A stretch of 64,000 nt of DNA from contig JAWMAR010000194.1 of assembly GCA_036785375.1 (NCBI GenBank), forward strand, positions 3,844,001 through 3,908,000, given 5' to 3'. Below the pieces are notes generated by a model. That model made no database searches and was not told the DNA's origin. It saw only the letters and a program-made list of their open reading frames with translations. Shown here in pieces: positions 7,673 to 59,230 of the stretch (positions within the stretch are counted from its first letter, which is position 1; every line of letters starts with the position of its first letter). This stretch comes from Leucoraja ocellata (lineage: Eukaryota). Position numbers and translations under genes: made by a program.

Positions 7673-7699
7673 TCAGAAAATGTTGTTCTGATGCTACAG
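7673..7699 (+). CDS. PROM1: Prominin-1 27-nt facultative microexon (SENVVLMLQ)
   Basis: tacacag|TCAGAAAATGTTGTTCTGATGCTACAG|gtacat; phase 0-0; aligns with the human alternative exon peptide PETVILGLK. Confidence 0.88.
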
Positions 7700-8120
7700 G
7701 TACATTTATTCCTTTGTGAATTCATTTTTTAAATTAATAGATGGATTAAAACTGCATACTGATCCCTCTCTATTTTTAAATGAAGTGTTGTGATAAATTT
7801 TACTTTTATTTAAATAACCTGGTTATTTTCAAATTGATTTAAATCATTGATTCTTTTTTGTTGTATAAGCTGGAGAAATAATGGGTGAACGGTGTGGATT
7901 GGTCCTTGTGACTGGGATATCTTGGGCCACACAGGAGGAGGACAGGGAGAGGGGCAGGACTAGTAGCTTGGTGATCCAGTTTAGATACTGCAAGTGTGAT
8001 AGTGCAGGTCTTCTTCTTTCGAGTCCAACTTGTTACGTTGACCTTGCTGTCGTCGTCTGTTCCGAAAAGGACGTAAGCTTCTGGCAACAATCGGTGTGAG
8101 CCTTCTTTGTCACAAGAGAT

Positions 8121-8681
8121 CAGGGTTCGGCAACTTACGACCCTCGGGCCCAATGCGGCCCGTAACCCGAAATCATCTGGCCCGCAGGCGTAATTTTTCC
8201 CCCGTAAATATCCGGACTGCAGACGGTACCTCCCGAGGCCGAGGGCCCAGGTGCGATGACACATGAATGCAAGGAGGCCTGCGCTGGTGGCCACAATGGA
8301 AGATGCGGCGAGCGCCAAGCTCTGGCTGTACTGCATCCTGCGCCGGCAAGGACGCACGCCTTCTGTGTCTGGGCTTCACTGTTGGGATCGGGGTTGTCAA
8401 TAGGCCGGGGACGGATGAGTGTGAGTATTTGAGCCACTGTCTTCAGGACAGAGCCAAGGCAATGGTCCGTAGGTACGCCACGTTCGTGAGCGCCCGTAAT
8501 TAGGGGCCAGTGTGTTGGGTGGCATCCTCGAAGGGGCAGGATCTATGTGAACACGTGATTTGATGGCTGCCATCCGGGGAGGGATGAGGGTGGGATCCAT
8601 GTGTACACGTGATAGATGTGGCCCGCCATCTACTCACAGACATGCGTCCTGGCCCCTATACAGAAAGGCTACCGTCCTCTG
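8121..8681. mobile_element. Non-autonomous hAT (Charlie-type) DNA transposon
   Basis: Ends cagggttcggcaactt... and ...aaggctaccgtcctctg; subterminal ggcccg repeats; 8-bp flanks caagagat/caatagag (6 of 8 match); CpG-rich interior. Confidence 0.75.
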
Positions 8682-9129
8682 CAATAGAGGTTGTTGGTAG
8701 CAGAATTAGCTCAGGATTCTTCCAATTTCCAGCCCCGCGACGGGATGCTTCATAGTTGCAGGTGAGAGAGAAGGAAGGGGGGAGGAGTTACATTTTTGAC
8801 GAGGTTACTTGACTACTTCCAGATTCAGGGACAGTTTCTTCCATTGTAATCAGGTATGGTCTTTACGCTGACTTTATAGCGAGCAACACAAAGCTTTTCA
8901 CTGTTCCTGTGAGAATAAACAAAACTAAAATAAGATGTTCTTGGGGATAGTCCAGTGAGGCTATATGGGTGGAACAACTCGGAAATAAGAAGGGATGTTT
9001 ACTTTGATTGGATTGTATTTTAGACTCGCCATTATTCAGTGGGAATTGGATGAGCAAATATATAGGGAAGAACAATAAGAAATGAAGCAATGCATTTAAG
9101 GAAAATCAGGCGGGGGTGGGGGGGGGGGG

Positions 9130-10030
9130 CAAGACAAGGACATGAGAATGCTCTGACAGACGAGATAAAGGAACATTCTATGATTCTACATTTATATTAA
9201 GACCTTGTGGGTAAAAGGAGGGAATAAGCCCCTTAAGGATAAACTTGGGGTCCTTGTATCAAGCCCCAGAAGATGGATCGGATGTTAGTAAATACTTATC
9301 TGCATTTACTTTGAGAAGGTCAATGAGGGAAAGGAATTGAGGGAAATCAGTATTAATCTGTTGGACCATCAGTCTCCAAGGTCTGACCAAGTATGTCCTC
9401 TGCAATTGTAGAAAGCTAGGGAAGAAATTCCTGCCACCCTGGCAGAGATTTTTAATCATATTCTGTCATATGGAGATACTTGAAAATTGGGGATTAGCCA
9501 ATGTTATCACTTTAAGAAGGGCTGTGAGGACAAGTGGGGAACTAAAGGCCAGCCATCATTAGTCACTGGAGGGGATTCTGACAGGCAAGATCTACCAGTA
9601 CTTGGATAGGGGATTGATTAGGAATTTTTCAGCATGGCTTTGTGCATAGGAAATCATGTCTCACAAATGTGATAGAGTTTAGATGGGATCACCGAAATGA
9701 TTATGGACAGGGTGGTGGAGGTTGTCATTTTTTGGACAAGCAAGATCTTAAAGTTCTTGTGTTAGGCTAGTCTAGAAAGATAGATCATGAGATGAAGGCT
9801 AAATTGGCTTGGTGGAAGAAGTCAGAGGGTTATAGTGGAGTGTCTTGTTTCCTTAGTTGGGTTGTAGTGTGGAGAGGAGTGTTTTTCTGATTGGAGTCCT
9901 GTGACCAGTTGTATGGCACAGGAATCTGTGCTGGGTGCCCTGTTATTTGTCATCGATTTTTCACAATTTGGTTGACATAATTAATGTGATTAGCATATTT
10001 GCAGATGATGCCCAAATTGTAGAAATATAC
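9130..10030 (+). mobile_element. Old CR1 LINE ORF2 fragment
   Basis: Degenerate QHGF..KSCLTN and VAQESVLG..FADDAQI readings. Confidence 0.65.
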
Positions 10031-10219
10031 TGATAAGGGGATAAAAAGGTCATTGAGGATAGCTAGGAATGCATAGTTAAGGTTACAATCCAACCATCTG
10101 AATGACTGAACAGACTCTAGTTGTCTCTTAAATTTAAGAGACATATGAAAGATATGGTTAAATAAAGATGAGATGTCTATTCGCTGCAATCCTCTAAACT
10201 AACAGGAAACTTCATGGGA

Positions 10220-10495
10220 AGAGACAAAGCACTGGAGTAACTCAATGGGCCAGGCAGCAATTCTGGAAAATGATCAGAGATGAAAAGACGAATAATGTGA
10301 GATAAGGAGATATTGTGAAATGCGAGGGGAAAGAATATAGGTGGAAGGCGCGTGGGCAAGGGAAGGGGAACATGGGTGCAAATGGGCACAGGTAAGAGGG
10401 AGAATAAACTGGCGTGAGGGGGGGGGGGGGGGGGAAGAGACAGGGAAGGTGTTCGAAGGTTACCTAAAATTGGCGAAATTGATGTTTATGGGTTA
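10220..10495 (-). mobile_element. Penelope-like element terminal remnant
   Basis: ctggagtaactca...caggcagca module plus the ttacctaaaattggcgaaattgatgtt end shared with other copies. Confidence 0.55.
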
Positions 10496-10757
10496 TTTTC
10501 CTCCATTCCTATCTTTGCGTTACACGGTACTGAATAACTGCTATTCTCATTTGTTTATAATGAAGTGCATATTATTTAATATTGGTAACAAGCTTCTTAG
10601 ACATACTGAATCTAACTGGTGTGTGCTATGCATTTATTACCTACATAATTTTAAGTGTATTCTTCAACTTCTAGCTAAGAGGAAGGTTTAAGTGTTCTGT
10701 AATTTTTGATGTGACTTCTATCACGATAAACCTGTCAATATTTTCTTTCTGAAACAG

Positions 10758-10963
10758 ATAATCTACTATGAGATTGGTTTCATCATCTGTGCAGCTTTGG
10801 GAATTGTGTTTATACTGCTCATGCCTATTTTGGGCCTGTGTTTCTGCATGTGCCGTTGCTGTGACAACTGTGGAGGGGAGCTGCACCAGCGGCAGAAGAA
10901 AAATACTGATTGCAGAAGAAGCTGCTTTGCAACATCCTTGCTGCTTGTAACGGTACTTATAAC
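10758..10963 (+). CDS. PROM1: Prominin-1 exon, 206 nt: TM1, Cys-rich loop and start of TM2
   Basis: aacag|ATAATC...ATAAC|gtaagt; IIYYEIGFIICAALGIVFILLMPILGLCFCMCRCCDNCGGELHQRQKKNTDCRRSCFATSLLLVTVLI. Confidence 0.97.
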
Positions 10964-11787
10964 GTAAGTTCAAATGGCAACACCGTCTTGCGGAGAATGT
11001 TGGTCTTTGCATTGATGGCACTTGGTTGTTAAGTAGGACACCTAATTGAAGCAGTTGATGCTCTTTCCCCTCTGGTATCAACTTAAGAATAGCACCAGGG
11101 GTAGCTGTGCCTTTTAAATCTCCTGTGCTATCTGTTAGATCATGGGCTCAACTACAAAAACCTCTCATTTATTCAATGATTCAGGCTCTCTGCATTCTGG
11201 AATAGAGATTATCAGATTCATAACCCCAATTGAAAACAAAATCATCCTGGTCTGTGCAATCTTATATTCTCAAATTTGGTGGAATGATGGAAAACATCCT
11301 TTTCACATCTTTTTCTATTTTGTCCACTCAGAATCGTGCATGTCTCAATAAGGTTCTTCGACAGACTGAATGATTTGTTCTTCCAAACCTAAGTGAGAAT
11401 AGGCTTAATCTGCTCACTTCCTCTTCATGGCAACCCATTAAATCCATTGAACTAGTGAATATTCTCTGATCTGATATCAATCCAAGTAAATCCCTCTAAG
11501 GAAACCGAACTCTGCACGATTTACCAGGGGTGTAAGGTTGCAGTAAGATATCCCTCCTTTTGCAACTAATTCTCATTGCATGGAAAGACCAATTGCATTG
11601 CTTTCAAATTTGCTGCAGCAGCATGTTAATCTTGTGCTCAATGTACAAGCCTCCACGGAGCTTTTTCTAGAATCTAGGCATATTTGGAAGACCCCAATCC
11701 GTGGATCTGCTTTTTGCGCAATTACTTAGTTCCAGAGGACTTGATTACTATTGGTGTCATCAATTTAGTTAATATTTTACCTAAATA

Positions 11788-11940
11788 GGAACTGCAGACG
11801 CAGGTTTAAATAGAAGAAAGACACAAAATGCTGAAGTAACTCAGTGGGACAGGCAGCATCTCTGGAGAGAAGGAATGGGTAATGTTTTGGGTCGAGACCG
11901 TTCTTCAGGCTGATTCGGGTTGAGACCCTTCAGACTGATA
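11788..11940 (-). repeat. Penelope-derived terminal module with hammerhead-like core
   Basis: Reverse complement of ctgaagaa.ggtctcgacccaaaac...ctgagttacttcagcattttgtgtc; the core is partly duplicated. Confidence 0.8.
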
Positions 11941-12169
11941 ACTAATTCTGACTGATTAAATAATTCATATTTTAGTTTTTTTTTCCCCATTCCCTCATTG
12001 TGTTTTGACTTTTATTCATGAATGCTTTTAGTTTTCTAATTTTTTTTATTAGCTTTACGATGTCCTTCCTATTTCAGTAATGATTTAATTACCGATTCAG
12101 AAACTAGAGGTTGATGCTCGATGCTTTGTGCCAGAGCTGCACATTGCTACAATGTGATGTGCAATATCA

Positions 12170-12382
12170 CCTTCCCCTCTGCTAACAATGTACCATTCTA
12201 CATTTCCTTGGTCATTATCCCCTTTGATCTGTGTTTTCACACCGTATTCTTCCATATTTGTCTCCCTTTCCCCTGACTCTCAGGCTGAAGAAAGGTCTCG
12301 ACCCAAAACTTCACCCATTCCTTCTCTCCAGAGATGCTGCCTGTCCCGCTGAGTTACTTCAGCATTTTGTGTCTATCTTCAA
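12170..12382 (+). repeat. Penelope-derived terminal module with hammerhead-like core
   Basis: ctgaagaaaggtctcgacccaaaac...gctgagttacttcagcattttgtgtct. Confidence 0.8.
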
Positions 12383-12528
12383 TAGAAAAACTAAAGCTTC
12401 CCTGAGCAATACAAAAATGTGAAGTGGGAGCAAGAGGAGACCACGCAAGCCTGTTGAGTCATTCAGATGATCAGATTGTAACCTCAACTACGCATTCCTA
12501 CCTGTCCTCGGTGACCGTTTCATCCTCT

Positions 12529-12772
12529 TATAGAAACATAGAAAATAGGTGCAGGAGTAGGCCATTCGGCCCTTCGAGCCTGCACCGCCATTGGATATGA
12601 TCATGGCTGATCATCCAACTCAGTATCCCATCCCTGCCTTCTCTCCATACCCCCTGATTCCTTTAGCCACAAGGGCCACATCTAACTCCCTCTTAAATAT
12701 AGCCAATGAACTGGCCTCAACTACCTTCTGTGGCAGAGAATTCCACCGATTGGCAGAGAATTCCACAGATCT
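12529..12772 (-). mobile_element. Young CR1 3' end inserted into an older CR1
   Basis: tagaaacatagaaaataggtgcaggagtaggccattcggcccttcgagcc tail; small duplication of tggcagagaattccac at the truncation point. Confidence 0.85.
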
Positions 12773-15270
12773 TTATCAATATTTTTCTACTCTGAGATTC
12801 TGCTCTTGGGTTCTGCTTCTACTGCCCTTTCAGGAAGAGTGTTTCAAAGATTCCAGACCCTCTGAGAAAAAAATATTTCCCCTTCTCTTGGTCTTAAATT
12901 AGTGACATGTTTGTAACATTGGCTGTTGATTGTAGATTCTGTCTCCATGTTCACCCTATCAAGTCTACTATGGATCTTTCTTTCAATCAGGCTGCCTCTC
13001 ATTCTTCTAACTTGCAGTGCTGCCATTTATTTTGAGAGGACTAGAATACAAAACCAGTGGCTTTAGGTGCTGAGCAGACCGTATTTGGAGTATTATGAGC
13101 AATTTTAAGCCGCATGCCTAGTGAACTTCTCTGAACTGCTTCCATATAAAAGTGACAAGTGTTGTAAATCGGTCACTATGGTCTCACTAGTGCACTATTT
13201 AACAAAAGCACAGTCTCTTACTTGGGTAGTCAATTTCCATTGCAAAGAACACTTTTTTGTTTTTCTCATTTGCTCAGCCTGCATTCCACTCTTTTGCAAA
13301 TCATGCTCTGGTGGACCCAGATTCCTTTGTATCCCACAGCTTTGCCATCTCTCACCATTTTGGTAATGTATCTTTTTCTGTCAAAATGGACAATTTCTCA
13401 CTTTTCCATATCATCCTCCATCTGCTAAATCTTTGCCCACTCATTTAATATCCCAACACTTTGAACTATTTGTGTGTTCCTCAGGACTTGTTGTCCTACC
13501 AATCTTTGTCTTCAGCAAATTTAGCAACTGCACTTTTGGTGCCTTAATCTGACGTTTATAAGTTGTAAAAGTTGAGGCTGCAGCATTGTACCTTGCCAAC
13601 CTTTAAAGACCTATTTATGCATACTCCTTTCCTATTAGCTAGCTAATCTTCTACTTTTGCCAACTTGAGCATTTACTTTCCACAAAAACTTGAAGTGGCA
13701 CCTTATCAAATACCTTCTGGTAAATCGTATGGCATGCACACCAGTTCCCTTTTCACCTCGGTACATGTTACTTCAAAGAACTCCAATAAATGGATCAAAC
13801 ACCATTCCTTTTCCATGAAACCATGTTGATTTTGCTTGCAGTTTTCCATGAGCCTTGCTCCAGCATCTCTAATAATAGCTTCTAACTGCCTGCAGTTTCC
13901 AACTTTTATTGAACAAAAGAGTTCCATTTATTATTTTTTCATCTAATGGAACCTTTCCCAGATTTGGAAAATTGAAACTAATGCATCAACTATCTCATCT
14001 AACCATGAGAATATTTGAAGGTCCAGAAAGTCCTAGGGATGTTAGCTCGGAGCCATTTCCCTAATAATTTGATTTTTTTTTATCATCCCCACAATTCCTT
14101 GTCTTCCAATTACTGATTAAGAGCTAATTCTGGGATATTACCTGAATCCTCTCTTGTGAAGGCTGATGCAAAATACCTGTAATTCATCATCAGCTCCTTA
14201 CTTTCCATATTGGCCATTATTGCGATGGTGTTGGAATTTTGTTAGAATTGTACATGGTGTTGGTAAGGCCACACTTGGAGCAGTGTGCACAGTTTTAATC
14301 TCCTTAATGTTAAGGATATAGTAGATTTGGAGGCAGTCCAAAGGAGATTTATCAGGCTCGTTTCTGGAATGAAAGAGTTGCCCTATGAAGAGAGGCTAAA
14401 CTGATTGGGTATACATTGTTTGGAATTTAGAAGATGCAGTGGTGATCTTAATGAAACATACAAGATCCTAAGGGGGTTTGGTGGAGTAGTGATTGAGCTT
14501 ATTTCACAAGTGGGAGTGTCTCGAATGAAGGGACATGGTTTCAAGATAAGAGGTCGAGCTTTTGAAGTAGAAACTTCTTGCAGATAGTAGTGCATTTCAG
14601 CCGCAGTATGTGATGGGGAGCAGATCATTAGATATATTTAAGATGGAGATAGATAAATGTTTGTAAAATTGAGGACTACGAGGAACTGGCACAGAAGAAA
14701 TGTTGAGGCCAGCATTGATCAGCCTTAAGGGCTGATACAACTCTCTCCAGGGTCCTATTGTTCACTGTTAATGTCCTTCCCTGGTTTGACTTTCCAAAAT
14801 CCAATATGTCACACTTAGTTGAATTAAAATCAATTGACCAATACTCTAGCAGTTCCCTGGATCCCATGCAATCTGCCCTTCCAGAGCAGCATTCCATATG
14901 GAACCTTATCAAAGGCCTTGCTCAAATCCATGCAGAATACATCTATAGCCTTGTCCTCATTAATCTTCTTTGTTGCTTCAAAATTCAATAGCATTTGTAA
15001 GAGACAATCTCTCGTGTACTTAACCATGCTGACTATCTCAAATCAACCTGTCCTTCCAAATACATGTATATCTTATCCCTTTATCTCCAGTTACCTTCCT
15101 ACCATAAATGTCAGGCTCATTGGTCGAGATTCCCAGATTTTTCTTTGTTGCCCTTGGGGGTATAAAATTATCCACCCTGCAGTCTTCCAATACCATGCTG
15201 GTGTCTAACGATGATCCGTGTATCTCAGCCATGACTCCAGCAATTACGTTTTAGCTTTCCAGAGTCCATA
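12773..15270. mobile_element. Patchwork of old CR1 fragments on both strands
   Basis: NQHGF..CLIHLLEFFE (13706-13927, minus); LEFRR..GDLNETYKIL (14405-14587, plus); DLSKAFDKVPY (14830-15027, minus). Confidence 0.8.
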
Positions 15271-15276
15271 GATATA

Positions 15277-15372
15277 CAGTGCACCCATCCAGATAGTATT
15301 CAGACCCCTTCACCTTTTTCCACATTTTGTACGTTACAGCCTTATTTTAAAATTGAGTTTTTCCTCATATCA
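15277..15372 (+). mobile_element. Tc1 transposon terminal fragment
   Basis: TA|cagtgca...agtattcagaccccttcacctttttccacattttgt...ttacagccttatt, the terminal sequence of fish Tc1 elements; no partner end found. Confidence 0.7.
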
Positions 15373-16010
15373 GTCCTAAATGGCCTACCCCTTATTCTTA
15401 AACTGTGACCACTGGTTCTAGACTCCCCCAAAATTGTGAACATTTTTCCTGCATCTAGCCTGTGCAATCCCTTAAGAATTTTATGTTTCTATAAGATCCC
15501 CTCTCATCCCTCTAAATTCCACTGAATACAAGCCCAGTCGACCCATTCTTTCCTTGTATGTCAGTCCCGCCATCCCAGGAATTAACCTGGGAGCCTACGC
15601 TGCACTCCCTCAATAGCAAGAATGTCCTTCCTCAAATTAGGAGACTAAAACTGCACACAGTACTCCAGTTGTGGTCTCACCAGGGCCCCGTGCAACTGCA
15701 GTAGGACCTCCTTGCTCCTAAACTCAAATCCTTTCGCAATGAAGGCCAACATGCCATTAGCTTTCTTCACTGCCTGCTATACCTGCATGCTTACTTTCAG
15801 TGACTGATGTACAAGGACACCCAAGGTCTCGTTGAACCTCGCCTTTTCCTAATCTAACTCCATTCAGATAATAATCTGCCTTCCTGTTTTCTGTCACCAA
15901 AGTGGATAACATCACATTTATCCACATTATTATACTGCAACGGCATGCATCTGCCCACTCACCCAACCTATTCAAGTCATGCAGCCTCAGAGCATCCTCC
16001 TCGCAGCTCA
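15373..16010 (-). mobile_element. CR1 LINE fragment (RT C-terminal region)
   Basis: DLNRLGEWA...NRKADYYLNGVRLGKGEVQRDLG; homologous to 50055-50670. Confidence 0.85.
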
Positions 16011-16782
16011 CCCCGTTGTTGGGCACTTGCACCTGCAACTGGGTCCTTAATTTTCTGACGCAACGGCAGCAGACAGTCAGGGTGGCAGCTGGACATCAAG
16101 AACCATCGAAGTGAGCACTGGCTCACCCCAAGGCTGTGTCCTAAGCCCCCTGCTGTTCAGTCTGCTTACTCATGACTGTACTGCCAGACTCGGCAATAAT
16201 TATATCAATACGTTCGCTGATGACACAACAGTGATGGGTCTCATCAGTGACAACAGTGAGTCGGCATACAGGATGGAGGTGAAGCTGCTTACAGAGTGGT
16301 GCAGATCTCACAATCTCATCCTCAATGTGGAAAAGACTAAGGAAATTGTGATCGATTTCAGCAGAGCCATCTCCATCATTCAGGACCCCCTATCACCCAT
16401 CACACCACATCTTCTCCATTCTGCCATCTGGGAAGAGGTACAGGAGCATCAGCTGCAGAACCAGCAGGATGCTACACAGCTTCTTCCCACGGCAATAAAA
16501 CTGGTTAATGGACTGTCCCCTCCCCATACATCATACACCAACACACCTAACCTCGCCCATACTTTGACAGCTAGACACCTGTCAAAGCAAAGCCACTGTT
16601 CGATCTGAATGTCTGTTTTTAGCTCAATTTTAAAGTCTATTTTAGATAAGTTAATTTTAAAGTTGTATGTATTTATTCTGTTTTTATGAACTGCACTGAT
16701 AGGAACTGATTGAGAAACAATTTTTCATTTCCTCTGTGTATGCAAGTACTCAGTGAAAATGACATTAAAGTAAATACTGAAT
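16011..16782 (+). mobile_element. Rex/Babar-type non-LTR retrotransposon, internally deleted 3' portion
   Basis: CNWVLNFLTQRQQTV; STGSPQGCVLSPLLFSLLTHDC..FADDTTVMGLI..LNVEKTKEIVIDF; tail gacattaaag. Confidence 0.85.
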
Positions 16783-17639
16783 ACCCAGCCACCCAGCTTT
16801 GTTTCATCCGCAAAGCTGGAGATGTTCTTGGGAACAACTAGTTTATTTAGTTCTGCCTGCCTCTGAAATGAATGTGAAATGTATGGTATGATACTACATG
16901 TTTGAATTTTAAGCAGTACAAAACATTCTCAGGGATCGTTTGGACAAAATTATTGCTATGTATGTGTTACTTCCAGCCACTGCAGATCCAGAATTGGTTC
17001 AAATCCCAGATACTCTAGTACTATTTCTTCCCTGCCTCTGCATACTATCATGTGGCAGATTGGTCTCTAGCTCCTTTGTACTTGTGTGCTTCATTAATAT
17101 GAAACTTGATTTGTTCCCTTTTCCAACACAGTCACATATTCTTAGTATCATGTACTACATGTAAGAATTTACAGTTTCTTCTTTCGACCTAGGGGAATGA
17201 TGTTTGCTGTCATTGGCATGCTAACTAGTAATTTGCCAATGAGGCTCGATGTTCATACTTAAAAGGTCAAACATGTTTGATTTGCTTAAAGTTAAAATGG
17301 GATTAAGGGATTTGGATGTTGACCATTTGGCAAGTATGTGGAATATATTAAAAAAAATTGTACTGTTCTTAAATGTTTAAAATCAACCCAGTTATATCCC
17401 AACTTTATTTTTTGTCTATCCAGTTTGAGTGTACAATTGTTCTGGTTATATGTGAGATTGTTTGGCTGGTTCATGTACCCAACACACCCTTTTCTCTATT
17501 GCTTGAGAATGGCCGACATCTAAAAATATATAGGTTTTGCTGTTCTGTGTTTCTTATTAAATTTCTTATTGATATGATGCGTTCCCGGTTAATATTGGTT
17601 ATTGTGGGTGTTCTGCAAAACTGAGGTTGCGTTTAACTT

Positions 17640-47127: not shown

Positions 47128-47147
47128 TTAACTTTGCATTTCTGCAG

Positions 47148-48582: not shown

Positions 48583-48738
48583 GTAAGCAAAATGTCAAAA
48601 ATATTGCAGTCGCCTTGATTGCCAGTACATGGTACAGATTTTTGTAGTAAAGATTGTGTCTTTAAGGTTTATTTCCAATTCCCAATATTTATTAGGAACT
48701 TTATAACGTCTTAACTCTAATTCTGCCATTTATTTTAG

Positions 48739-48862: not shown

Positions 48863-49847
48863 GTAATGTGCAATAACTTTATTGTAAGTAAAAAATATAG
48901 TAAAATAAAAGTAAAGAAAATTTGAATATTTTTATTCGATTTTCATTTTTTTTGGTGAGTGTTTTATTAAACCAATTTTGCGATTCTATTGTATGAAAAA
49001 CCTAATTTGCTTCTGCAGATCTCCATTACCTGGAGGCCATATCTGAAGTCAAGACTTGGAACTTTGCAATCCTCTCCCTTAATGCCATGGCCATTCCTGG
49101 TTAAGATGCTTCTTCAGTTCAAACTCTTAACCAATCTTTATTTTTCCATGTGCCCCTTATTTGGTTCACCAGCTGTGGTTCCCACCCATTTCCACTTAAC
49201 CCGGGCGAATTGAGCTGGGACTTGGCGATGGTTGTGGCAAAACCACGAAGGCAACTAGGCCTCTGCAACAGCGCCTTTTGGGTCCTATCCTCAACTCCCC
49301 GGAAACCTTTGATGGGAGGAAAAGCTGGTCACAGAATCTCACCGTCTGTCAAAGTTGTCTCCAGTTTTTGTTTTTATCCCTACTATTCAGAAAATAGTAA
49401 AAAATATACAGTAAACATAAAATTAAAAATAAGCCCTAGAATCACAAGGATTTGGCCAAGCATCTCCTTTTGCAGCTTGATGTCACCTTTTGCTTGATTG
49501 TTGTGTCAGTGTTCCGGGGACACTTCACAAATAAACCTGAGTGTTTAAATGAGCTCAAATGTGGTGTAAAATGGGATTCTGCGCAATGAAATAATTTGAG
49601 TTATTACCGATACGAAATTCAGGGTTGCAAAATTTTCAAAACCCTCAAAATATGGAACTTTGTTTGAAGTGGCTTGTATAAGCAGATTTTATTTTTCGGT
49701 CATGTTTTCATTGTTTATTTCTTAGACTTTTAACAATAGTAAGGTGCAGTGCTTAATGTAAATGGGCCTAATACAAGATATATTTGGGGAAACTGGTATG
49801 TGATACACAGTTTTTGCTACTAAGTTGGTAATTTTTGTGTTTTCAAG

Positions 49848-49969
49848 CTTTTAGATACTCCTTATTTATTGAACTCGCAGTGGAAAAATTTCCTTTCTGG
49901 ATATCTGTTTTCTGACTACAACGTAAACCTCACCTTCGATCTAAACCTCACTTTTCAGAGTGTGTACAG
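49848..49969 (+). CDS. PROM1: Prominin-1 exon, 122 nt, containing an 18-nt internal duplication
   Basis: tcaag|...|gtcaga; LLDTPYLLNSQWKNFLSGYLFSDYNVNLTFDLNLTFQSVY. Confidence 0.95.
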
Positions 49970-50054
49970 GTCAGATACTAACATTTAATGCAAAGTCTTG
50001 ATATTTTGTTTCTTGGGGAATAAAAACAGTTTGTATCTGTTTATCTCTTGGCTG

Positions 50055-50670
50055 CAGTAATGCTTGCATGCAGGTACAACAGGCAGTGAAGAAAGCGAAT
50101 GGCATGTTGGCCTTTATAACAAGAGGAATCGAATATAGGAGCAAAGATTTGAGGAAGGACATTCTTGCTATTGAGGGAGTACAGCGTAGGTTTACAAGGT
50201 TAATTCCCGGGATGGCGGGACTGTCATATGCTGAGAGAATGAAGCAGCTGGGCTTGTACACTCTGGAGTTTAGAAGGATGAGAGGGCTTCTCATTGAAAC
50301 ATATAAGATTGTTAAAGACTTGGACACACATGAGGCCAGAAACATGTTCCTGATGTTGGGGGAGTCCAGAACCAGGGGCCGCAGTTTAAGAATAAGGAGT
50401 AAGCCATTTAGAACGGAGATGAGGAAACACTTTTTCTCACAGAGAGTGGTGAGTCTGTGGAATTCTCTGCCTCAGAGGGCGGTGGAGGCAGGTTCTCTGG
50501 ATGCTTTCAAGAGAGCTAGATAGGGCTCTTAAAAATAGCGGAGTCAGGGGATATGGGGAGAAGGCAGGAACGGGGTACTGATTGGGATGATCAGCCATTA
50601 TCACATTGAATGGTGGTGCTGACTCAAAGGGCCAAATGGCCTACTCCTGCACCTATTGCCTATTGCCATA
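50055..50670 (+). mobile_element. Young CR1 LINE 3' portion
   Basis: ORF 50068-50523 VKKANGMLAFI..EGVQRRFTRLIPGM..FFSQRVVSLWNSLP, then 3' UTR ending ggcctactcctgcacctattg. Confidence 0.93.
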
Positions 50671-50943
50671 CATCCCCCTGGTGATTTTTGTACTGGGGTA
50701 GGGATCCAGGTTTGCCACATGGGTAAGTTAGCAAGTCTGGAGAGAGCTTTGGTCTGATTCTTCAAAATCTTGAAGCCATTCCCAATCCTTTGGTACCAAA
50801 ATGAATGACAATTGGTAGCGGCTTTAATACTCTCCATGGTAAACACCATGCGATTTATTTTGCCTGCTCCCGTAATCATTCAGACAGCTTTGTGGTAATA
50901 CTGAAGCTATTCGCTCTACTCCCTTTTGTCACACCAGGATACT

Positions 50944-50999
50944 TCTCACCAATGTGCTAACAGACCACTGTTAATCTCACCAATGTGCTAACAGACCAC
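50944..50999. repeat. Perfect 25-bp direct duplication (period 31)
   Basis: tctcaccaatgtgctaacagaccac at 50944 and 50975. Confidence 0.9.
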
Positions 51000-51360
51000 C
51001 AAAATGCCTTTACCTGGGGGTGGGAGATATTGATCGGATGAGTCTCTGTGTCTCCTATGTGAGTTTAACTTGACATCACATCAATATTTTCAGGCCTATT
51101 AAATTTTTATAATGGTCATGACTTTCACTTGGTCATTCACTTCAGAATCTGCCGAAGGGCCTATTTCCGTGCTGTATGACTCTTAAGTAATATATTTTGA
51201 AAGTAGGATGAACTGGAGGATGTAGCCAAGGAAAGAGTCATGCAATCTAAGATCTATTACAATTTCCTGAACCACTTCAGGCCCATCTTGGAGATAATGT
51301 ATTTTAAAAGAGTGCCTACTGTGAATGTTAAATCATAATCTATTTTTAATTTCTCTACAG

Positions 51361-51442
51361 CAAGTGTCGCAGAAATGAAGGAGTATATTCAGCCTTCCAG
51401 CTACAACATGTATTCAATATTAATGATGTAAATTTCAATGCA
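51361..51442 (+). CDS. PROM1: Prominin-1 exon, 82 nt
   Basis: tacag|...|gtaagt; KCRRNEGVYSAFQLQHVFNINDVNFNA. Confidence 0.93.
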
Positions 51443-51937
51443 GTAAGTAAAAGCAGTGGATTTCCTTAGTAATGTATTCTTTAAGTCGAAAAGATGAACT
51501 GCAGTTGCAGAGAGAGGCACTGAAATGCTGCTTTCTTGTTTATGTTCTACTTGTTTCCAGTGGTGAAATGAGATATTAACCAAAAGTTGATCAAACTCTG
51601 CAATCTTGTACCAGCTCAGTTTTGTCTTTAGGACAAATTGACTTTGTTGTTGAAAATTGTTTTTATGCCTCTTGGATTTTCTTCTCTCGCTCGGACTTTG
51701 GCTAAAGAGGGCAAGTGTCAAAGCTGCTGCAGCCTTGGAAAGTCACATTCTGGTCAATTTAATAGCAGTCAATAGCTGTATTTCAGTTGTCGTTTTAACT
51801 TTCCAGCAAAAAAATTCCATACTTTCATTTCACACACTTTGAAGTAATTCATCATATAGTGAATACTATTTTCCTCTGATTTTGACCTTGTAATGTGCTT
51901 TCCTGTATACATTTGAAAAGGCTGTTTGAGCACAGTA

Positions 51938-52175
51938 TAAACACAAAATTCTGGAGTAACCTGGTGGGTCAGGCAACATTGCTGGAGGATGTGGATAGAT
52001 GATGTTTCCGTTTGGGATCCTCCTTTGGATCAGAGTCTGAGCCTGAAGAGGCGTTCGGACCCAAAGCATCGCCAGTGCATGTCCTCCAGAGCTGCTGCCT
52101 GACCCGTTGAGCACCTGGTACTCTAGCACTCTGTATTTTGCATAATATTCCAGCATCTGCAATTCTTTGTTTTTG
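51938..52175. repeat. Head-to-head inverted pair of Penelope-derived modules
   Basis: ctggagtaac..gggtcaggcaaca..ctggagga ... tcctccagagctgctgcctgacccg. Confidence 0.7.
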
Positions 52176-52744
52176 CAGAATAAATGGCTGTATACATTCC
52201 CTAAGGAATATACACTGTGATTTGCAAGCAAATTTTGCTTTGGACAAATGGTTGTGTTCCGATAACATTTTACAGCTCCCACTTATTTTAAAACTGCAGC
52301 TCAATTTGTTCAGAATAATTTTCCATTTGGATTTTGGAAGTGTGTATGATTTGGTTTAATTCCTGCATGTGTGCTGCAGCAGTTTTCTCAATGCAAAGCA
52401 ATCAAAGTAATGGACTTTTGAAGAAAATGCAGGGCTGCTGCTATCTGAAAGTCAAATAAAAATGGTGGCTGAATTTGAATTGAAGTGAGCTGGAACACTC
52501 ACTGGCTGGATGATGTATCTGAAGCTCAAGGTTATAATACTGGACTTTATTTTATTTGATTGGCATTTCCAATGAAGAGACCATTTTGAATAGATCTTGC
52601 TGGATTAGGATACTGGAGTGACATGTACTAGGACAAGGTTTATGCAGCAGTGGGCTAAATTTGTTATGTGACTAGAATAAAATAATATAGTAAATGCAAA
52701 AGTTGTTTGAATGTACACTTTTAATGGCACTGTCTTTTTTTCAG

Positions 52745-52891
52745 TATACAGCTAATGTGACGGACAAATTCAGCAATGTTGAAGTGAACTTTAGTAGCAT
52801 AATAATACTGGAGGAAGAGGCTAAAATTGGTCTGCGCGATTTCACTGATACTGGCATTGACAAGATTAATTTTGCTGCCTATTTCAATGAG
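52745..52891 (+). CDS. PROM1: Prominin-1 exon, 147 nt
   Basis: ttcag|...|gtatca; YTANVTDKFSNVEVNFSSIIILEEEAKIGLRDFTDTGIDKINFAAYFNE. Confidence 0.94.
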
Positions 52892-54572
52892 GTATCACTT
52901 TATTCTTTGTACGCTGAAATGTAATGAAACTAGATGTTTACTAGAAATATTTTTGTAATCAAATCTAAATATCCTATATGAAAGCAGAAACTATCTCATT
53001 GCACATTTCATTTGAATTATGTAAATTACAAGTGAACCCGATACAAATTTGTTTTGCTTGGTTATATTTGAGCATAAAGTCTAATTTACAGTGGAGTTTT
53101 AATTAAAGATATTTCAATATACAAAGAAGTTGATTGTATAATAAAATAAAATCATTTATTCTCTGTTACCTTCCAATACAGGTGCTCCAATACTTCCAGT
53201 GTGAAATTCTCATCCTGCGTTTTTCCATATTCCTTGTTTTCAATTTATTTCTGTAGAGCTGCTTCCCAATGTCACAATCTCTGATCCAGGCTCATTGTCC
53301 GCTCTGACCACAGAACAATTAGCAACTGGGCCCCAAAATGTGGAAATGCTCCCATTCCAATCGGATTACAAAGATTTTGTTTACACCTAATATTGCTTCC
53401 ATTTGCTTCACACATTTTTATATACTCTACATTTCTGTAATTGGAAATGTTTTATTATTAGCATATTATACATGCACATTGCTATAAACCTTCTTTAAAA
53501 AAAACAAAAAAAAAACTATTTAATCAACATGAAATCTGAAGGGAAAAATAAATCTGGTGGATAGAAAAAATAAGTTCCTGTTTGGAACGGAAGGGTTATT
53601 TATAGGTTGCACGTGCTCCAAGTCCACCATCCCTATGAGGATAGGGACACAAGCATTCTGCTGAATGTATAAAAGTGGATGTCACGGAGGCCCTCTTCTA
53701 TGTACCCAAGGCATCCTTAAACACAAGTTTGTCCTGTAATAACAGTGCTCCAGTAACTCAGCGGTCAGGCAGCATCTGTGGAGTTACTCCAACACTTTGT
53801 TTTACTCAAGGTCGCAGCATCTGCAGTTCCCTGTGTCTTCATTTGTCTTGTACTGTTCCACAAGCATCAATCAATATATAAAGTGTTTAGATACCCTAAA
53901 TGGAATGACAAAACGACCAACTTCCTCTGACTTAATTGCAACTTGCAAACAGTGGTTTTGGAATTGCCAGCTGTAGTTATGTATGCAAGTTCGTATTTTA
54001 GAACAGCACACAATGGGAGCCACTTGACGGGACTGGTCTGGGAACTGATCGCTCTACTCTACACACAGTTGTGCCCAATGTGTACATGTATGTAGATCGT
54101 GGTTGAAAAAATGAAATGGGGTCTGGAGCCATACTCATGAGTATGCAGATCCACAGGTATCAAATCAGCAGATAACGTGGGTGGAATGTTTTTGATAGAA
54201 TTTGAAAAGTGTCTGATAAACATCAATGATGTTGAAGTCCCTCATCTTTGCAACTACCTCTCATCTGCAACTTACCTTGCCAGTCCCGTGAAACCAATTG
54301 CCTTTCAGATTGATGCTCATTTTTTTCCATGGCTGAATCTCTCAAAATGTCACATTAGAAAAATATCCCCAACACAAACATTTTGCTGTGTTGTTTTTAT
54401 GGTAAGCCTTACTGTGTCCTTTGGTGAATATTGTCTTTATTTGAGCAGTTGCTCTTCTATCTTTTCAATTGGATCTCTAATGTAGTCAAGAATTACTTTC
54501 ACTGATTTTCTGCAATTGTGAGTTTCAAACTTTTCCGACAAGTTTTTCTTAATTTATTTCTCTCATTTACAG

Positions 54573-54644
54573 ATTAAAAAAAATGTGACTAAGGTGGACC
54601 TTGGGGTATTTGCAAATGATCTAGTAGCAAAAGCAAATTCACTG
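54573..54644 (+). CDS. PROM1: Prominin-1 exon, 72 nt
   Basis: tacag|...|gtaagt; IKKNVTKVDLGVFANDLVAKANSL. Confidence 0.94.
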
Positions 54645-55004
54645 GTAAGTTATTTGGGGGAAATTTAGTCTCTGACACAATTTGCTTTCTCCTTTCCCTC
54701 TGCTCTCAGCAAACACATCTACAGTGGTAGGGAAACCACATTATACATAGTACATAGTAGAAAATCCAACATGACTCACATTTGTGTTTTTTGGTGCTGT
54801 GCTAACCTAAAAATAAATGATGTTATTTCCCTCACACCAGTGCTCTATTTTTTAAAAAAAATCAACGTATTATTAAAATAACACACATACGTGTCACAAA
54901 CAAAATATTGATGTTGATACCCACAGACTTTGATGTTACAGTTCAGGTGACAGTTCAGTTGGCTGCTGAACAACAAACAATTATGACCCAGCTGCTGCTA
55001 TGAC

Positions 55005-55107
55005 CGAAGATAGATACAAAATGCTGGAGTAACAGCGGGTCAGGCAGCATCTTTGGAGAAAAGAAATGGGTGATGTTTTGGGTCAAGATGCTTCTTCAGA
55101 CTGAGAG
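55005..55107 (-). repeat. Penelope-derived terminal module
   Basis: caaaatgctggagtaacagcgggtcaggcagcatc...ttcttcagactga. Confidence 0.8.
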
Positions 55108-55411
55108 GGAAAGTAAAAGTGCTATGACCTGTAAGCCGCTTAAGGTGTTTTTCAGGACTGACTGCATAATTAATAGATTCTATTTTTCAAACTTTAGTAA
55201 TTCAATTTAAATCTAGTTTTTGAGGTTCTGGTAAACTGTAAAGCACTGTCTCGCTATATTGAAACAAACTTGATTTGAATAAACACTGAACTCCTGTGAG
55301 TTTTGGCAGCTCCGATTTGTAGATCATGGTGATCAAACCCTGAGCCCCTTTTGTTTTTGGTCAGAATTAACCTAAAATGTCTGCTAGTTAGTACTGTGTT
55401 GCAAACCATGA

Positions 55412-55585
55412 TGTAGAAACATTGAAACATAGAACATAGGTGCAGGAGTAGGCCATTCGACCCTTCGAGCCAGGACCGCCATTCAATATGGTCATGGCTG
55501 ATCATCCAAAATCAGTAACCCATTCTGGCTGTCCCCCCCCCCCATATCCCTTGATTCCCTTTGCCCTAAGAGCTAAATCTAACTA
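55412..55585 (-). mobile_element. CR1 3' end
   Basis: (agaaacat)n tail plus ggtgcaggagtaggccattcgacccttcgagcc. Confidence 0.85.
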
Positions 55586-56128
55586 GCTGTAGCGACAGAA
55601 CAACATAAGTGCTTCCTGAAAAAGCTATTCAATATCTGTTGCAGGAAATAAATGTCGCCAGTGCATGTTTTGTTTTGCAAAATGCCACTTACATTTGTAA
55701 AGCGATCAAGCATTAAGAGGAACCGAGATGAGTATCTATTTCTCCTGCACTTCCAATCTTGGTATTTTTTTCCATCAGCGCTGCCATTTTAATTGTCAGT
55801 TTCTTATCTTTTGCTTGCCTTTCCTGAAAGTGGCAGTTTATGCTAAGTAAATAACATTTTAATTCTCCAATCATTTGTGCGTAGAGCAATGACAAGCTTC
55901 TTCTAAAGACACACAATCCTGTTACTGTCATGCCATCCACTTGTTCTTGCAGCTGAGAGGGATGATCCTGTTCAAAGAGATTGGAGGTTATATGACCAAT
56001 TTATAGAAAACCGTTCAATCAAATATTTGATTGCATTATAAATAGTTGTGGGTTCTATATAGAGTACTATATTGGCAAGCATGTCTGTAATTTATTGGTA
56101 TGTGACTGTCTATATGCAACTTATTCAG

Positions 56129-56221
56129 CCCGCAGGAGCCTTGGCAAATGCATTAAGAGGATATGCAAACAATATTCGGGAAATATACAGGCAGCAAGTG
56201 ATACCTCTCGAGGCAGGAATG
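56129..56221 (+). CDS. PROM1: Prominin-1 exon, 93 nt
   Basis: ttcag|...|gtaaga; PAGALANALRGYANNIREIYRQQVIPLEAGM. Confidence 0.94.
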
Positions 56222-56444
56222 GTAAGAAAAGTGCAGAAAAAATGTTTGCTTGATCAATTTTGCACATTATTTAAGCCTGTTTAAGATGTGCTTTGAATTT
56301 GCATTGTACAGCCATATTCTTTGCTATTGATATCAGAAATGGTCAGCTATCATCTTCTTGCCTCTATGAAAGGATTTTTGCCCTTTGGCCTTGCTTTTGT
56401 TCAAGTAAAAAAATTGCAGGCTCTGTAAACAAACCAAGTCCCCA

Positions 56445-56729
56445 GGGTGGCACAGTGGTGCAGTAGTACAGTTGCTGCTTTACAGCGCCATAGTCCCGAG
56501 TGCTGTCTTTACTGAGTTTGTACATTCTCCCTGTGACTGCATGGGTTTTCTCCGGGTCCTCCTGTTTCCTCCCACATTCCAAATACATACAGGTTTGTAG
56601 GTTAATTGGCTTCTGTAAATGGTCTGTTGTGTATCGGATAAAACTGGTGTGTGGGAGATCGCTGGTTGGCGTGGACTTGTTGGGCCAAAAGGCCTGTTTC
56701 CACGTTGTATCTCTAAACTAAACCAAACT
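56445..56729 (+). mobile_element. HE1-like tRNA-derived SINE
   Basis: ggcacagtggtgcagtagtacagttgctg head, cctcccacattccaaa core and ctaaactaaac tail; homologous to 1919-2237. Confidence 0.85.
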
Positions 56730-57019
56730 TTCAATCAAAATCAATTCTTATTGTTACTGCTATTAAATGGTTGAATGATTGCAAGTAAACTACTTGCTGG
56801 AAAATAGGTGTAAGATTTTTTTTTCAATCAAAGGTGGAGACAAATTTTACATTAGAATTGGATGATGTTGATATTTAAATAATGAAAATAATTGGATAGA
56901 CAATTCCCAAACAGGCATACCTTGAAGGAGAAGGTAAAATCAGGCCATGCGGGGCTGGGGAACAATGAGGCTGGAAGCTTGGGGGGGGGGCAGGGAGCCG
57001 GTGGAGAAGGTAAAATCGA

Positions 57020-58070
57020 GCTGGAACGTTGCCTATTTCCTTCTCTCCATATATGCTGCATCGCCCGCTGAGTTTCTCCAGCATTTTTGTCATACCTTCA
57101 ATTTTTCCAGCATCTGCAGTTCTTTCTTAACCATCCTGTTTTCAAAGGTGTTTTGGAGATGCTGCTGCTAGCCAACTCCTGGAAGATCCAATCCCAATGG
57201 TTGACTGGCGATAGACTTCATGGCTCTGGCAGTTTCAGCTGTCAGCTAAAATAGTAGTGAATTGAATTTCTTCACTTTATAGCCTTTTTTGGGGAAATTA
57301 ATTTGTTCTTCCATCAACAAACTTCCCCTGATCCTTGTTTACAATTAGTTGTAGATGCAAGTTTCTATATTGTCTTAAGATTTTGCACTCTTTTGGGCAA
57401 GTAAAGAAAATTTGTTATACTTGTTGCCCACTTCAAAGGAATTATCTTTCCAGGTGCGGCAGAGGTTCACCTGCATCTCCTCCAGCCTCATCTATTGCAA
57501 CCGCTGCTCTAGGTGTCAGCTGATCTACATCGGTGAGACCAAGCGTAGGCTTGGCGATCGTTTCGCCGAACACCTCCGCTCGGTCTGCATTAACCAACAT
57601 GAACATTGACTTTTTCAATTTCCGGTAGCCCTTGCTGTCTCCCCCCCTTCCCAGCTCTCCCTCAGCCCTCTGTTCCTCCTCTTCCTTTCTTCTTCCCTCT
57701 CCTCCCCCCCCCCCCCCCCCCCACCCAGTCTGAAGAAGGTTTTGGCCCGAAATTTTGCCTATTTCCTTAGTTCCATAGATGCTGCCTCACCCGCTGAGTT
57801 TCTCCAGCACTTTTGTCTACCTTAGATTTTCCAGCATCTGCAGTTCGTTCTTGAACATTTTCTCCTCCCCTTCTCAGGCCTCCCTCAGCTCACTGTCTCC
57901 GCCTCTTCCTTTCTTCTTCCCACCCCTCCCCACCCTCACATCAGTCTGAAGAAAGGTCTCGACCCGAAACATTGCCTATTTTCATTCCATTGATGCTGCC
58001 ACACCAACTGAGTTTCTCCAGCATTTTTGTCTACCTTCGATTTTCCAACATCTGCAGTTCCTTCTTAAAT
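57020..58070 (+). mobile_element. Penelope-like element end: GIY-YIG remnant with three direct copies of the terminal module
   Basis: ORF 57412-57609 FQVRQRFTCISSSLIYCNRCSRCQLIYIGETKRRLGDRFAEHLRSV; modules at ~57024-57132 (partial), 57725-57857 and 57941-58068. Confidence 0.88.
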
Positions 58071-59212
58071 ATTTCCTTAAATAAGTTTTCCACATGTAAT
58101 CAGAATTTCAGACCATTTTTAAAACATTGATATGGGCAGCTGCTGAACTGAGGCTGAATGGCACTGCTGCTCCAGTTATGACATAATTGAAATTACTGAC
58201 TCACCTGGGTAGTTGAAATGTAATCCTGCAAAAAATGTAATTATTAAGATCAAAAGCCATGCCCTGGTTACTATTTACAGCAGTTACTGTCATCCCAAAA
58301 AACACCATCTAGAGGGTAATCTGTTTTTGAAAGGTGACCATCTCGATTCACATGCTTGCCTTGCATATCCTGCTTTAATTTACTGCAGATAAAAACATAC
58401 TTCTATATCAACTTTATATCTTATAAATTACTATGAATTTGTAGTGGCTGTTTCCATAACCTGTGTAATAGTCACGGTTCAATATTGAAATCATGCCATG
58501 GGGTGGCGCTGTGTTTACTCTGTAGAAATTGTTTCCACTTCTAGCAAATTCTGATATCTGGTGATTCTTTCCTGTCTGAGATATCTTGATTAACATTTAT
58601 GAATTTTGCTGGTTATGTTAGCATTTAGTTGAAGGAAGTCTTTGTCAACAATTATTGATCATTATAAGTTAGGACTTTGGGCTTGATGGCTGGAACGCAG
58701 CTGAATTAGTGTTCTCACTTTATTACAGTTGCAGCTCTCCTTATCAGCCATATGTTTGGGCTGCTGAACAGTTTTAGAGTAACTACCAAATGGTTTAATA
58801 TGTTTGCCATGCATTCCACACCTTGAACCATGGCAATTTGTTTAATTTCCTCAAGTGAAATTGGATTTAAGGCTTTATGCATATAATGTAAGCTATAGAG
58901 GTTTATGATACAATAGTCCAAAGCTGTTTATTTGAAATCAGGTCTTCTCAAATTAATTTCAATTGCCTTTTGTTATTTAATATTTGGTCTTTGATTTTTG
59001 AAACTTCAAATTCGTTTATATTTGGTCGAGATTTAATCAAAGCTACAAGGGGCTTACAGCAGCATCTAATCTCGTTAAGGAGTTTCTATAGTTATTATTG
59101 TTTGTCTGAAACGCATCTTGAATCTTATATTCAATGATTTATTTTTCATTAACCTTGTGTCCCTTTAAAAAAAAATTAATTCCAATTCTTGCTTTTTTTA
59201 AATGCTTACCAG

Positions 59213-59230
59213 AGATATGTTGAAGCACGG
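59213..59230 (+). CDS. PROM1: Prominin-1 18-nt facultative microexon (RYVEAR)
   Basis: aaatgcttaccag|AGATATGTTGAAGCACGG|gtaaga; phase 0-0; same position as the 6-aa alternative exon known in vertebrate prominin-1. Confidence 0.82.

Follow-up and report, generated by a model that had tools for sequence, protein, structure and literature searches.

Skate orthologues of the optional prominin-1 microexons of other vertebrates

Optional exons of vertebrate prominin-1

Optional exons of prominin-1 were reported in 2011 from Xenopus and from axolotl, zebrafish and chick; according to these accounts, they are in-frame and encode extracellular segments (PMC3108902, PMC3047580). Human cone development suffers when the 27-nt exon of PROM1, a retinal-disease gene, is skipped (PMC11445533). 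Quantitative tissue panels of four species reveal a strong retina bias: percent inclusion (PSI) in retina versus other tissues is 97.4 vs 14.3 for the human 27-nt exon, 96.05 vs 0.01 and 86.6 vs 3.3 for the mouse and chicken 18-nt exons, and 48.8 vs 0 and 17.75 vs 0.18 for 24-nt exons of chicken and zebrafish prom1a, respectively (Ciampi 2022, Dataset S1, PMC9303857). Judged from their length and near-zero inclusion elsewhere rather than from coordinates, the two 24-nt events would correspond to the exon named F7'.

More than one regulator acts on these exons. In zebrafish srrm3 mutants inclusion of the 24-nt exon falls by 35 PSI points at 60 hpf and by 19 at 72 hpf, an effect that vanishes by 5 dpf (-1.6), while the human 27-nt exon gains a modest 9-36 points with SRRM3/4 and does not respond to MSI1 (PMC9303857). 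In a comparison based on Msi1/Msi2 knockout, inclusion of the mouse 18-nt exon is 0.90-0.96 vs 0.13-0.23, and MSI1 binds downstream of it. This exon, known as exon 19, modifies PROM1 structure, with loss of a conformational epitope; it is inactive in primates. Mice with five other photoreceptor exons deleted have no phenotype.

The skate prom1 gene

The window, a stretch of 64,000 nucleotides from the skate Leucoraja ocellata, contains prom1 coding exons 2-20 (Table 1). The spliced model, made of 17 constitutive exons with Amblyraja isoform X7 as reference, is identical to this isoform at 625 of 634 residues and to Leucoraja erinacea isoform X6 at 630 of 634 (99.4%), in agreement with a first-pass annotation that had recognized prominin-1 of a cartilaginous fish. 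The Prominin domain (PF05478, E=1.7e-236) is found in the Amblyraja protein, which is 98.6% identical to the skate model. Homology was used for the gene model because a strict de novo exon scan gave correct boundaries for just 3 of the 17 constitutive exons. Searches of the window located neither the first coding exon nor the 3' exons: the N-terminal 74 aa and the C-terminal part gave only weak, scattered matches (E 2.6 or worse). When PDB sequences were searched with a single exon as query, no prominin came up, just one unrelated match (E=1.8).

Exon sizes and phases are conserved with mammalian PROM1. Exons in the window measure 59, 27, 206, 121, 64, 90, 218, 75, 64, 9, 160, 153, 124, 122, 82, 147, 72, 93, 18 and 54 nt, and those of dog, as printed in its exon table, 56, 27, 206, 121, 64, 90, 218, 75, 64, 9, 160, 154, 123, 104, 85, 147, 72, 92, 19 and 55 (PMC5049760), a near exon-for-exon match that includes exons of 27, 9 and about 18 nt at equal positions.

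Table 1. Coordinates of prom1 features in the window
Feature	Position	Strand	Remarks
prom1 coding exons 2-20, rajid skate	7305..62270	+	tblastn and spliced model
Constitutive exons, first six	7305-7363, 10758-10963, 31463-31583, 31666-31729, 34685-34774, 38450-38667	+	
Constitutive exons, next six	39163-39237, 46295-46358, 47644-47803, 48430-48582, 48739-48862, 49848-49969	+	
Constitutive exons, last five	51361-51442, 52745-52891, 54573-54644, 56129-56221, 62217-62270	+	3' end of 62217-62270 placed by visible donor
27-nt microexon, SENVVLMLQ	7673..7699	+	extracellular N-terminus, phase 0; orthologous to facultative exon 3 (human exon 4)
24-nt microexon, TVKRAIKA	36109..36132	+	first large loop, phase 1; orthologous to F7' / Xenopus 8a
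Predicted 9-nt microexon, ALPH in context	47148..47156	+	phase 1; first large loop; orthologue of A10' / 11a
18-nt microexon, RYVEAR	59213..59230	+	second large loop, phase 0; orthologous to photoreceptor-enriched exon 19
TGC nearest upstream of 27-nt exon	7651..7653	+	at -22
TGC, 24-nt exon	36099..36101	+	at -10; candidate SRRM3/4 enhancer
TGC, 9-nt exon	47135..47137	+	at -13; candidate SRRM3/4 enhancer
TGC, 18-nt exon	59203..59205	+	at -10; candidate SRRM3/4 enhancer

Position, frame and topology of the four microexons

Each of the four segments is preceded by AG and followed by GT, and the spliced model bears out the phases that the first-pass annotation had assigned to their host introns. 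They fall within the size and frame definition of SRRM3/4-class microexons (3-27 nt, frame-preserving). The extracellular location proposed for all the inserts agrees with the hydropathy of Amblyraja protein X1, where five hydrophobic, transmembrane segments are found; the insert sites lie at about residues 95 (ahead of TM1), 264 and 382 (both in the TM2-TM3 interval) and 701 (in the TM4-TM5 interval). In intron, phase, length and homologous peptide they coincide with facultative exons 3, F7'/8a, A10'/11a and 19. The skate microexons are thus not new, since their counterparts had been published in other vertebrates by 2011.

All 16 inclusion combinations are free of stop codons on translation. 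The 16 variants foreseen at first are merely 2^4, a combinatorial ceiling that fits poorly with the tight co-regulation proposed alongside it; as a biological number the count was rejected.

Conservation and annotation among vertebrates

Gene models were surveyed in 138 proteins of sharks, rays and chimaeras (23 named species) and in 117 proteins of other vertebrates. Peptides identical to those of the window are found for the 27-nt exon in 5 of 7 Amblyraja isoforms, for the 24-nt exon in 8 of 12 Rhinoraja isoforms and for the 18-nt exon in isoforms of Amblyraja, Leucoraja and Rhinoraja. Annotation covers these three exons in 12, 7 and 13 of the 23 species, respectively, and computed models of the relatives contain both included and skipped forms of each. 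The microexon peptides are conserved from skate to birds; counterparts given in earlier accounts are PENVVLTLK for the 27-nt exon of dog (PMC5049760), VKVESAIK at the 24-nt site of zebrafish 1b, and ALPY, AIPH and ALP at the 9-nt site of axolotl, Xenopus and zebrafish (PMC3047580). Eight of the 16 combinations occur in cartilaginous-fish models and 14 in those of other vertebrates, all as combinations in computed models.

The expectation that annotation would miss the 9- and 24-nt exons holds for the former, found in none of the 138 cartilaginous-fish proteins and in 17 of the 117 others; it does not hold in general for the latter, annotated in 38 of the 138, none of them from Amblyraja or Leucoraja. 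With three exons live, the 9-nt segment could be a retained relic, rarely or never spliced in cartilaginous fish, as its absence from all 23 species, its ordinary AG-free stretch (36 nt) and its modest donor score would suggest. This is unlikely: AG and GT are intact, the phase is correct, and the segment ranks first of 45 candidates in its intron. Absence from models is explicable, as 9-nt exons are hard to align. Moreover, size and flanks (tgcag, gtaag) equal those of exon 11a in the published dog exon table. Judging from its sequence, the 9-nt exon is probably used in skate.

Tissue pattern

By homology with bony vertebrates, inclusion in skate is likely retina-biased. It is quite improbable that the exons, though real, are included broadly or without retina bias in skate, in epithelial, renal or developmental contexts. 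Such a pattern would fit several observations: Xenopus kidney clones carry 8a, 11a and 19, exon 3 is constitutive in Xenopus, the exon-3 form is expressed in all mouse tissues tested, and exon 4 inclusion reaches 100% in adult human cornea and lens. Furthermore, skate models frequently carry the 18-nt exon (4 of 6 in Leucoraja, 11 of 12 in Rhinoraja), and its inclusion may be broader in skates. Against this stand the retina bias in the panels of four species and the mouse variant SV8 with exon 19, which is eye-only.

Splicing signals and regulators

TGC lies within about 13 nt of the acceptor in the 24-, 9- and 18-nt exons, as first noticed, and the 9-nt exon has a second one at -5. This feature is shared by 3 of 4 microexons vs 2 of 17 constitutive acceptors (Fisher p=0.028); if 'tgcag' is counted, the constitutive acceptors become 4 of 17 (p=0.088), so that the enrichment, based on four microexons only, is weak. 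AG-free stretches of 83, 71, 36 and 121 nt precede the 27-, 24-, 9- and 18-nt exons, the median over all 3206 AGs from 7400 to 62000 being 24 nt. Downstream of the skate microexons, TAG occurs 1-2 times per 150 nt vs 0-5 times after constitutive exons; being no denser there, it gives a Musashi role in skate no sequence support, and enrichment of Musashi motifs was dropped.

The first-pass annotation had proposed a co-regulated retinal or neural switch under SRRM3/4. A retina bias with some SRRM3/4 input remains likely, but the single programme is not supported. That one tightly co-regulated SRRM3/4 programme turns on all four exons together in retina or neurons is very doubtful, even if TGC near three acceptors, the long AG-free acceptors and the response of the human 27-nt and zebrafish 24-nt exons agree with it, as does the joint presence of the 27-, 24- and 18-nt exons in 20 of the 138 cartilaginous-fish models and of all four in 10 of the 117 others. 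However, combinations in computed models do not prove co-inclusion, and UGC, present in just 74-79% of true SRRM3/4 targets, is neither strictly required for nor predictive of SRRM3/4 sensitivity. In addition, the mouse exon 19 depends on Musashi, the srrm3 effect in zebrafish is transient, and each species lists one or two PROM1 retina microexons only. Optional exons are included separately in Xenopus cDNAs, with unequal shares among retina clones (8a 0/5, 11a 3/5, 19 4/5).

That the four segments are chance AG..GT look-alikes is hardly tenable, for although prom1 introns hold 1359 in-frame candidates, a few of which score above the claimed ones, three of the peptides are identical to annotated skate isoforms, which refutes chance for those three, and the 9-nt segment has its place, phase, length and peptide in common with A10'/11a. 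On a crude splice-site score with approximate weights, the 27-, 24-, 9- and 18-nt exons come 1/108, 1/83, 1/45 and 2/137 when ranked with the in-frame AG..GT segments (3-30 nt) of their host introns, and 14, 6, 5 and 2 of 1359 gene-wide; by itself this score does not pick out the four exons, and peptide homology does. A higher-scoring 24-nt candidate at 59854 was rejected as a fifth exon, with no matching insert in any of the 255 proteins.

Interpretation and comparison with known systems

Most probably, the four microexons are skate orthologues of optional exons 3, F7'/8a, A10'/11a and 19, which most tissues would skip and photoreceptors would chiefly include, at a level particular to each exon. 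As in bony vertebrates, long AG-free acceptors and nearby UGC would let SRRM3/4 promote inclusion. Since SRRM3/4 input would thus meet a proven Musashi-driven exon, the 18-nt one of mouse, the four would form an overlapping, mixed-regulator set and not one switch. The 9, 8, 3 and 6 added residues, placed according to published 3D models, may alter the extracellular helical bundle in length or register, an effect shown for mouse exon 19 by the epitope loss, and this change could tune prominin-1 for the edges of outer-segment discs.

Counting against this interpretation are the 9-nt exon missing from the surveyed cartilaginous-fish models and from the PROM1 retina-microexon lists, the exon 3 always kept in Xenopus, the frog kidney clones, the frequency of the 18-nt exon in skate models, the lack of TAG enrichment and the mice that show no phenotype when five other photoreceptor exons are deleted.

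A further-reaching view, to which we give little credence, traces the whole set, 9-nt exon included, back to the ancestor of jawed vertebrates and sees in it a code by which photoreceptor subtypes set how long the extracellular bundle is and hence how disc edges are spaced. Rod-versus-cone use would then explain why the retina includes the 24-nt exon only in part (18% in zebrafish, 49% in chicken), and mammalian lineages would have shed parts of the set. The skate retina is described as rod-only.

The importance of the locus is modest and no new mechanism is raised. With the skate gene, all four exons are seen together on the cartilaginous-fish branch of jawed vertebrates, and the sole small new datum is the 9-nt exon, a correctable annotation gap in all the shark, ray and chimaera proteins checked. 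No literature on prominin in skate retina, on prominin-1 exons in cartilaginous fish or on a pure-rod retina in Leucoraja erinacea was found in a search that had most subscription journals outside its reach, and the passages on facultative exons in PMC3047580 and PMC5049760 do not name cartilaginous fish.

Compared with Xenopus laevis, positions, the 24- and 18-nt sizes, frame and extracellular location of exons 8a, 11a, 19 and 3 are the same, but 11a has 12 nt instead of 9, and exon 3 is always kept, with an extra exon 3a, whereas it is optional in skate relatives (PMC3108902). Peptides and positions also match those given for exons 3, F7' and A10' of axolotl, chick and zebrafish (Jaszai 2011, PMC3047580) and for exons 3, 11a and 19 of dog (Thamm 2016, PMC5049760); in the dog exon table, 11a has 9 nt with a tgcag acceptor and a gtaag donor, like the skate exon, and no F7' exon appears, whereas skate carries a 24-nt orthologue. 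The mouse exon 19 has 18 nt and a position in the third extracellular domain, as in skate (PMC4991804, PMC9509328, PMC9550058); it is Musashi-dependent, while the skate exon lacks downstream UAG enrichment. The PROM1 retina-microexon lists (6 rows, at most two per species) contain no 9- or 12-nt event (PMC9303857). The RetMICs among them, namely HsaEX0050329 (27 nt), MmuEX0037291 and GgaEX0021235 (18 nt), and GgaEX2029520 and DreEX0058510 (24 nt), share with the skate exons the gene, the sizes and, at three of the four skate acceptors, a nearby UGC, and PROM1 RetMICs respond partially to SRRM3/4 (Ciampi 2022, PMC9303857).

Four microexons in the skate prom1 gene

The prom1 gene of Leucoraja ocellata contains four segments corresponding to the facultative exon 3 (27 nt, human exon 4), F7'/8a (24 nt), A10'/11a (9 nt) and exon 19 (18 nt); they are intact, in-phase exons within extracellular segments. 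The first-pass annotation had claimed their positions, host-intron phases and extracellular location, and all of this holds: each segment is flanked by AG and GT, the phases are the same when the 17 constitutive exons are spliced into a model, and hydropathy, from which membrane topology was read, puts the insert sites outside the transmembrane (TM) segments. A sequence search with a single exon yielded batoid prominin-1 proteins; the spliced model is identical to Leucoraja erinacea X6 at 630 of 634 residues and to Amblyraja radiata X7 at 625 of 634, which marks the window as rajid skate DNA, and its translation stays open in 16/16 inclusion combinations of the microexons.

Positions of the prom1 microexons and of intronic retroelement-like sequences
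Feature	Position	Strand	Flanks	Host-intron phase	Location
27-nt microexon	7673-7699		AG before, GT after	0	upstream of TM1
24-nt microexon	36109-36132		AG before, GT after	1	TM2-TM3 interval
9-nt microexon	47148-47156		AG before, GT after	1	TM2-TM3 interval
18-nt microexon	59213-59230		AG before, GT after	0	TM4-TM5 interval
LTR-retrotransposon-like relic, frame-broken	~40300-44700	+			intron after exon 9
Further retroelement-like fragment	~25300-27100	-			intronic
Further retroelement-like fragment	16051-16608				intronic
Further retroelement-like fragment	50002-50523				intronic
Further retroelement-like fragment	60780-61268				intronic
Further retroelement-like fragment	62994-63780				intronic

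By a crude splice-site score with approximate weights, the 27-, 24- and 9-nt exons rank first in their introns (of 108, 83 and 45 candidates) and the 18-nt exon second of 137; gene-wide, a few look-alikes among 1359 candidates match them. The AG-free stretch upstream measures 83, 71, 36 and 121 nt for the 27-, 24-, 9- and 18-nt exons, versus a median of 24. The TGC claimed within about 13 nt of three acceptors is found at -10 (24-nt), -13 (9-nt) and -10 (18-nt), and lies at -22 for the 27-nt exon. Within 13 nt TGC occurs in 3/4 microexons versus 2/17 constitutive acceptors (p=0.028), or versus 4/17 when 'tgcag' is counted too (p=0.088). The credibility of the microexons rests on homology rather than on motif strength.

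Two further candidates were noted. An in-frame AG at 36115, 6 bases inside the 24-nt exon and second of 83 in its intron by the crude score, could yield an 18-nt form; no such insert occurs among the 255 aligned prominin-1 proteins listed. An in-frame 24-nt AG..GT candidate at 59854-59877 scores above the 18-nt exon by the same crude score; no annotated insert corresponds to it, and it is probably a look-alike.

Inserts across vertebrates

The alignment comprises 255 vertebrate prominin-1 proteins, i.e. the best 120 of 1419 matches and members of 13 clusters (taken among those listed, at most 15 per cluster); 138 come from cartilaginous fishes, representing 23 named species plus one record without a species name. 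Among these proteins, the 27-nt exon is present in 58/138 proteins from 12 species (including one odd Callorhinchus model), the 24-nt exon in 38/138 from 7 species, and the 18-nt exon in 65/138 from 13 species (including two truncated Narcine models and extended Scyliorhinus canicula forms). Optional use of these three exons is shown in relatives' models. Occupancy of the insert columns is 0-2% across 95 distant prominins. Inclusion combinations number 8/16 in cartilaginous fish and 14/16 in other vertebrates among the matches listed; since the proteins are mostly computed gene models, these are no proof of real isoforms.

The 9-nt exon is found in 0/138 of the listed cartilaginous-fish proteins, covering the 23 named species, and in 17/117 from other vertebrates (birds, gars, paddlefish, axolotl). 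The expectation that automated annotation would miss the 9- and 24-nt exons is borne out for the former and not, in general, for the latter. This absence, a small new datum, fits a relic that is rarely or never spliced in cartilaginous fish; we consider that reading unlikely, with the segment's leading score in its intron standing against it, and it is compatible with the explanation preferred for the other three exons.

Seven bird models carry different three-residue inserts (GED, GVL type) where the 9-nt exon sits; these may reflect alternative splice sites or be artefacts of the models. Exon 19 has a 9-residue form in sturgeon and birds and a 22-residue form in S. canicula; the window has no other AG across 59092-59212, the 121 nt 5' of the 18-nt exon, and therefore lacks long-form acceptors.

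Regulation and possible function

The preferred explanation is four optional exons with probably retina-biased inclusion and mixed regulators. A single co-regulated SRRM3/4 retina/neural switch, as first proposed, is unlikely, and published clones speak against it. Xenopus full-length retina clones s1-s5 mix exons (8a in 0/5, 11a in 3/5, 19 in 4/5), kidney-listed clones include 19 in 2/2 and also 8a and 11a in one, and exon 3 is retained in all seven full-length clones (PMC3108902). In mouse the exon-3 form is reported in every tissue tested and exon 19 in the eye only (PMC2924886); exon 4 is fully included in adult human cornea and lens (PMC11445533).

Retina bias itself is documented in other vertebrates: Ciampi 2022 (PMC9303857) lists five PROM1 retina microexon events, with inclusion percentages (retina, others, neural) of 97.4, 14.3 and 45.6 for the human 27-nt exon, 96.05, 0.01 and 0.24 for the mouse 18-nt, 86.6, 3.3 and 31.5 for the chicken 18-nt, 48.8, 0 and 0 for the chicken 24-nt, and 17.75, 0.18 and 1.97 for the zebrafish prom1a 24-nt exon; the two 24-nt events would correspond to F7'. 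In the same study the human 27-nt exon changes by +9.3 points with SRRM3 and +12.1 with SRRM4 in HEK293, by +36.4 in HCT116, and by -4.1 with MSI1, while in zebrafish srrm3 mutants the 24-nt exon loses 35 points at 60 hpf, 19 at 72 hpf and only 1.6 at 5 dpf. MSI1 promotes a switch-like Prom1 exon (Murphy 2016, PMC4991804), and in the Msi1/Msi2 knockout comparison of Matalkah 2022 (PMC9509328) the 18-nt exon is at 0.90-0.96 against 0.13-0.23. UGC is reported in 74-79% of SRRM3/4 targets, with no strict requirement (preprint 10.1101/2024.09.17.613571). By analogy with these vertebrates, inclusion in skate would be retina-biased exon by exon, through SRRM3/4 at UGC-bearing acceptors and Musashi; because a motif count found no enrichment of TAG downstream of the skate microexons, the Musashi role is carried over by homology only.

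The inserts may alter the extracellular helical bundle in length or register. The ectodomain has been modelled as a 15-nm helical extension (PMC11445533), and a conformational epitope that mouse exon 19 makes weaker returns when six neighbouring residues are removed (PMC9550058). The functional weight of the microexons is uncertain, since deletion of five other photoreceptor exons in mice was without effect on vision (PMC9509328).

Other features of the gene

Exon 49848-49969 carries an 18-nt imperfect tandem duplication (49924-49960), yielding NVNLTFDLNLTF and a second N-x-T sequon; present in Amblyraja and Leucoraja and absent from Rhinoraja, it may mark one skate clade. Pfam matches in the LTR-retrotransposon-like relic are PF00078, a reverse transcriptase (E=7.6e-31), and the RNase H-like PF17919; a protease-like motif and integrase-like ORFs were recognized by eye. 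The other fragments include a reverse-transcriptase piece at 16051 (E=1.2e-12) and, by eye, a gag/protease-like ORF with no Pfam match and LINE-like or integrase-like pieces.

Comparison with known prominin-1 variants

The initial observation is real and largely known already, in other vertebrates; for skate or cartilaginous-fish prominin, a literature search found no paper. More than 20 prominin-1 splice variants are counted in a 2024 review (PMC10967083). Jaszai 2011 (PMC3047580) described A10' (ALPY, AIPH, ALP), F7' (VKVESAIK) and exon 3, and Han and Papermaster 2011 (PMC3108902) reported Xenopus 8a (24 bp), 11a (12 bp) and 19 (18 bp), none of which shifts the frame or lies outside the extracellular domains. 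For the dog, Thamm 2016 (PMC5049760) lists exons 3, 11a and 19 in a gene whose exon sizes are nearly equal to those in skate; dog 11a is 9 nt long with tgcag and gtaag flanks, the same as those of the skate 9-nt exon.
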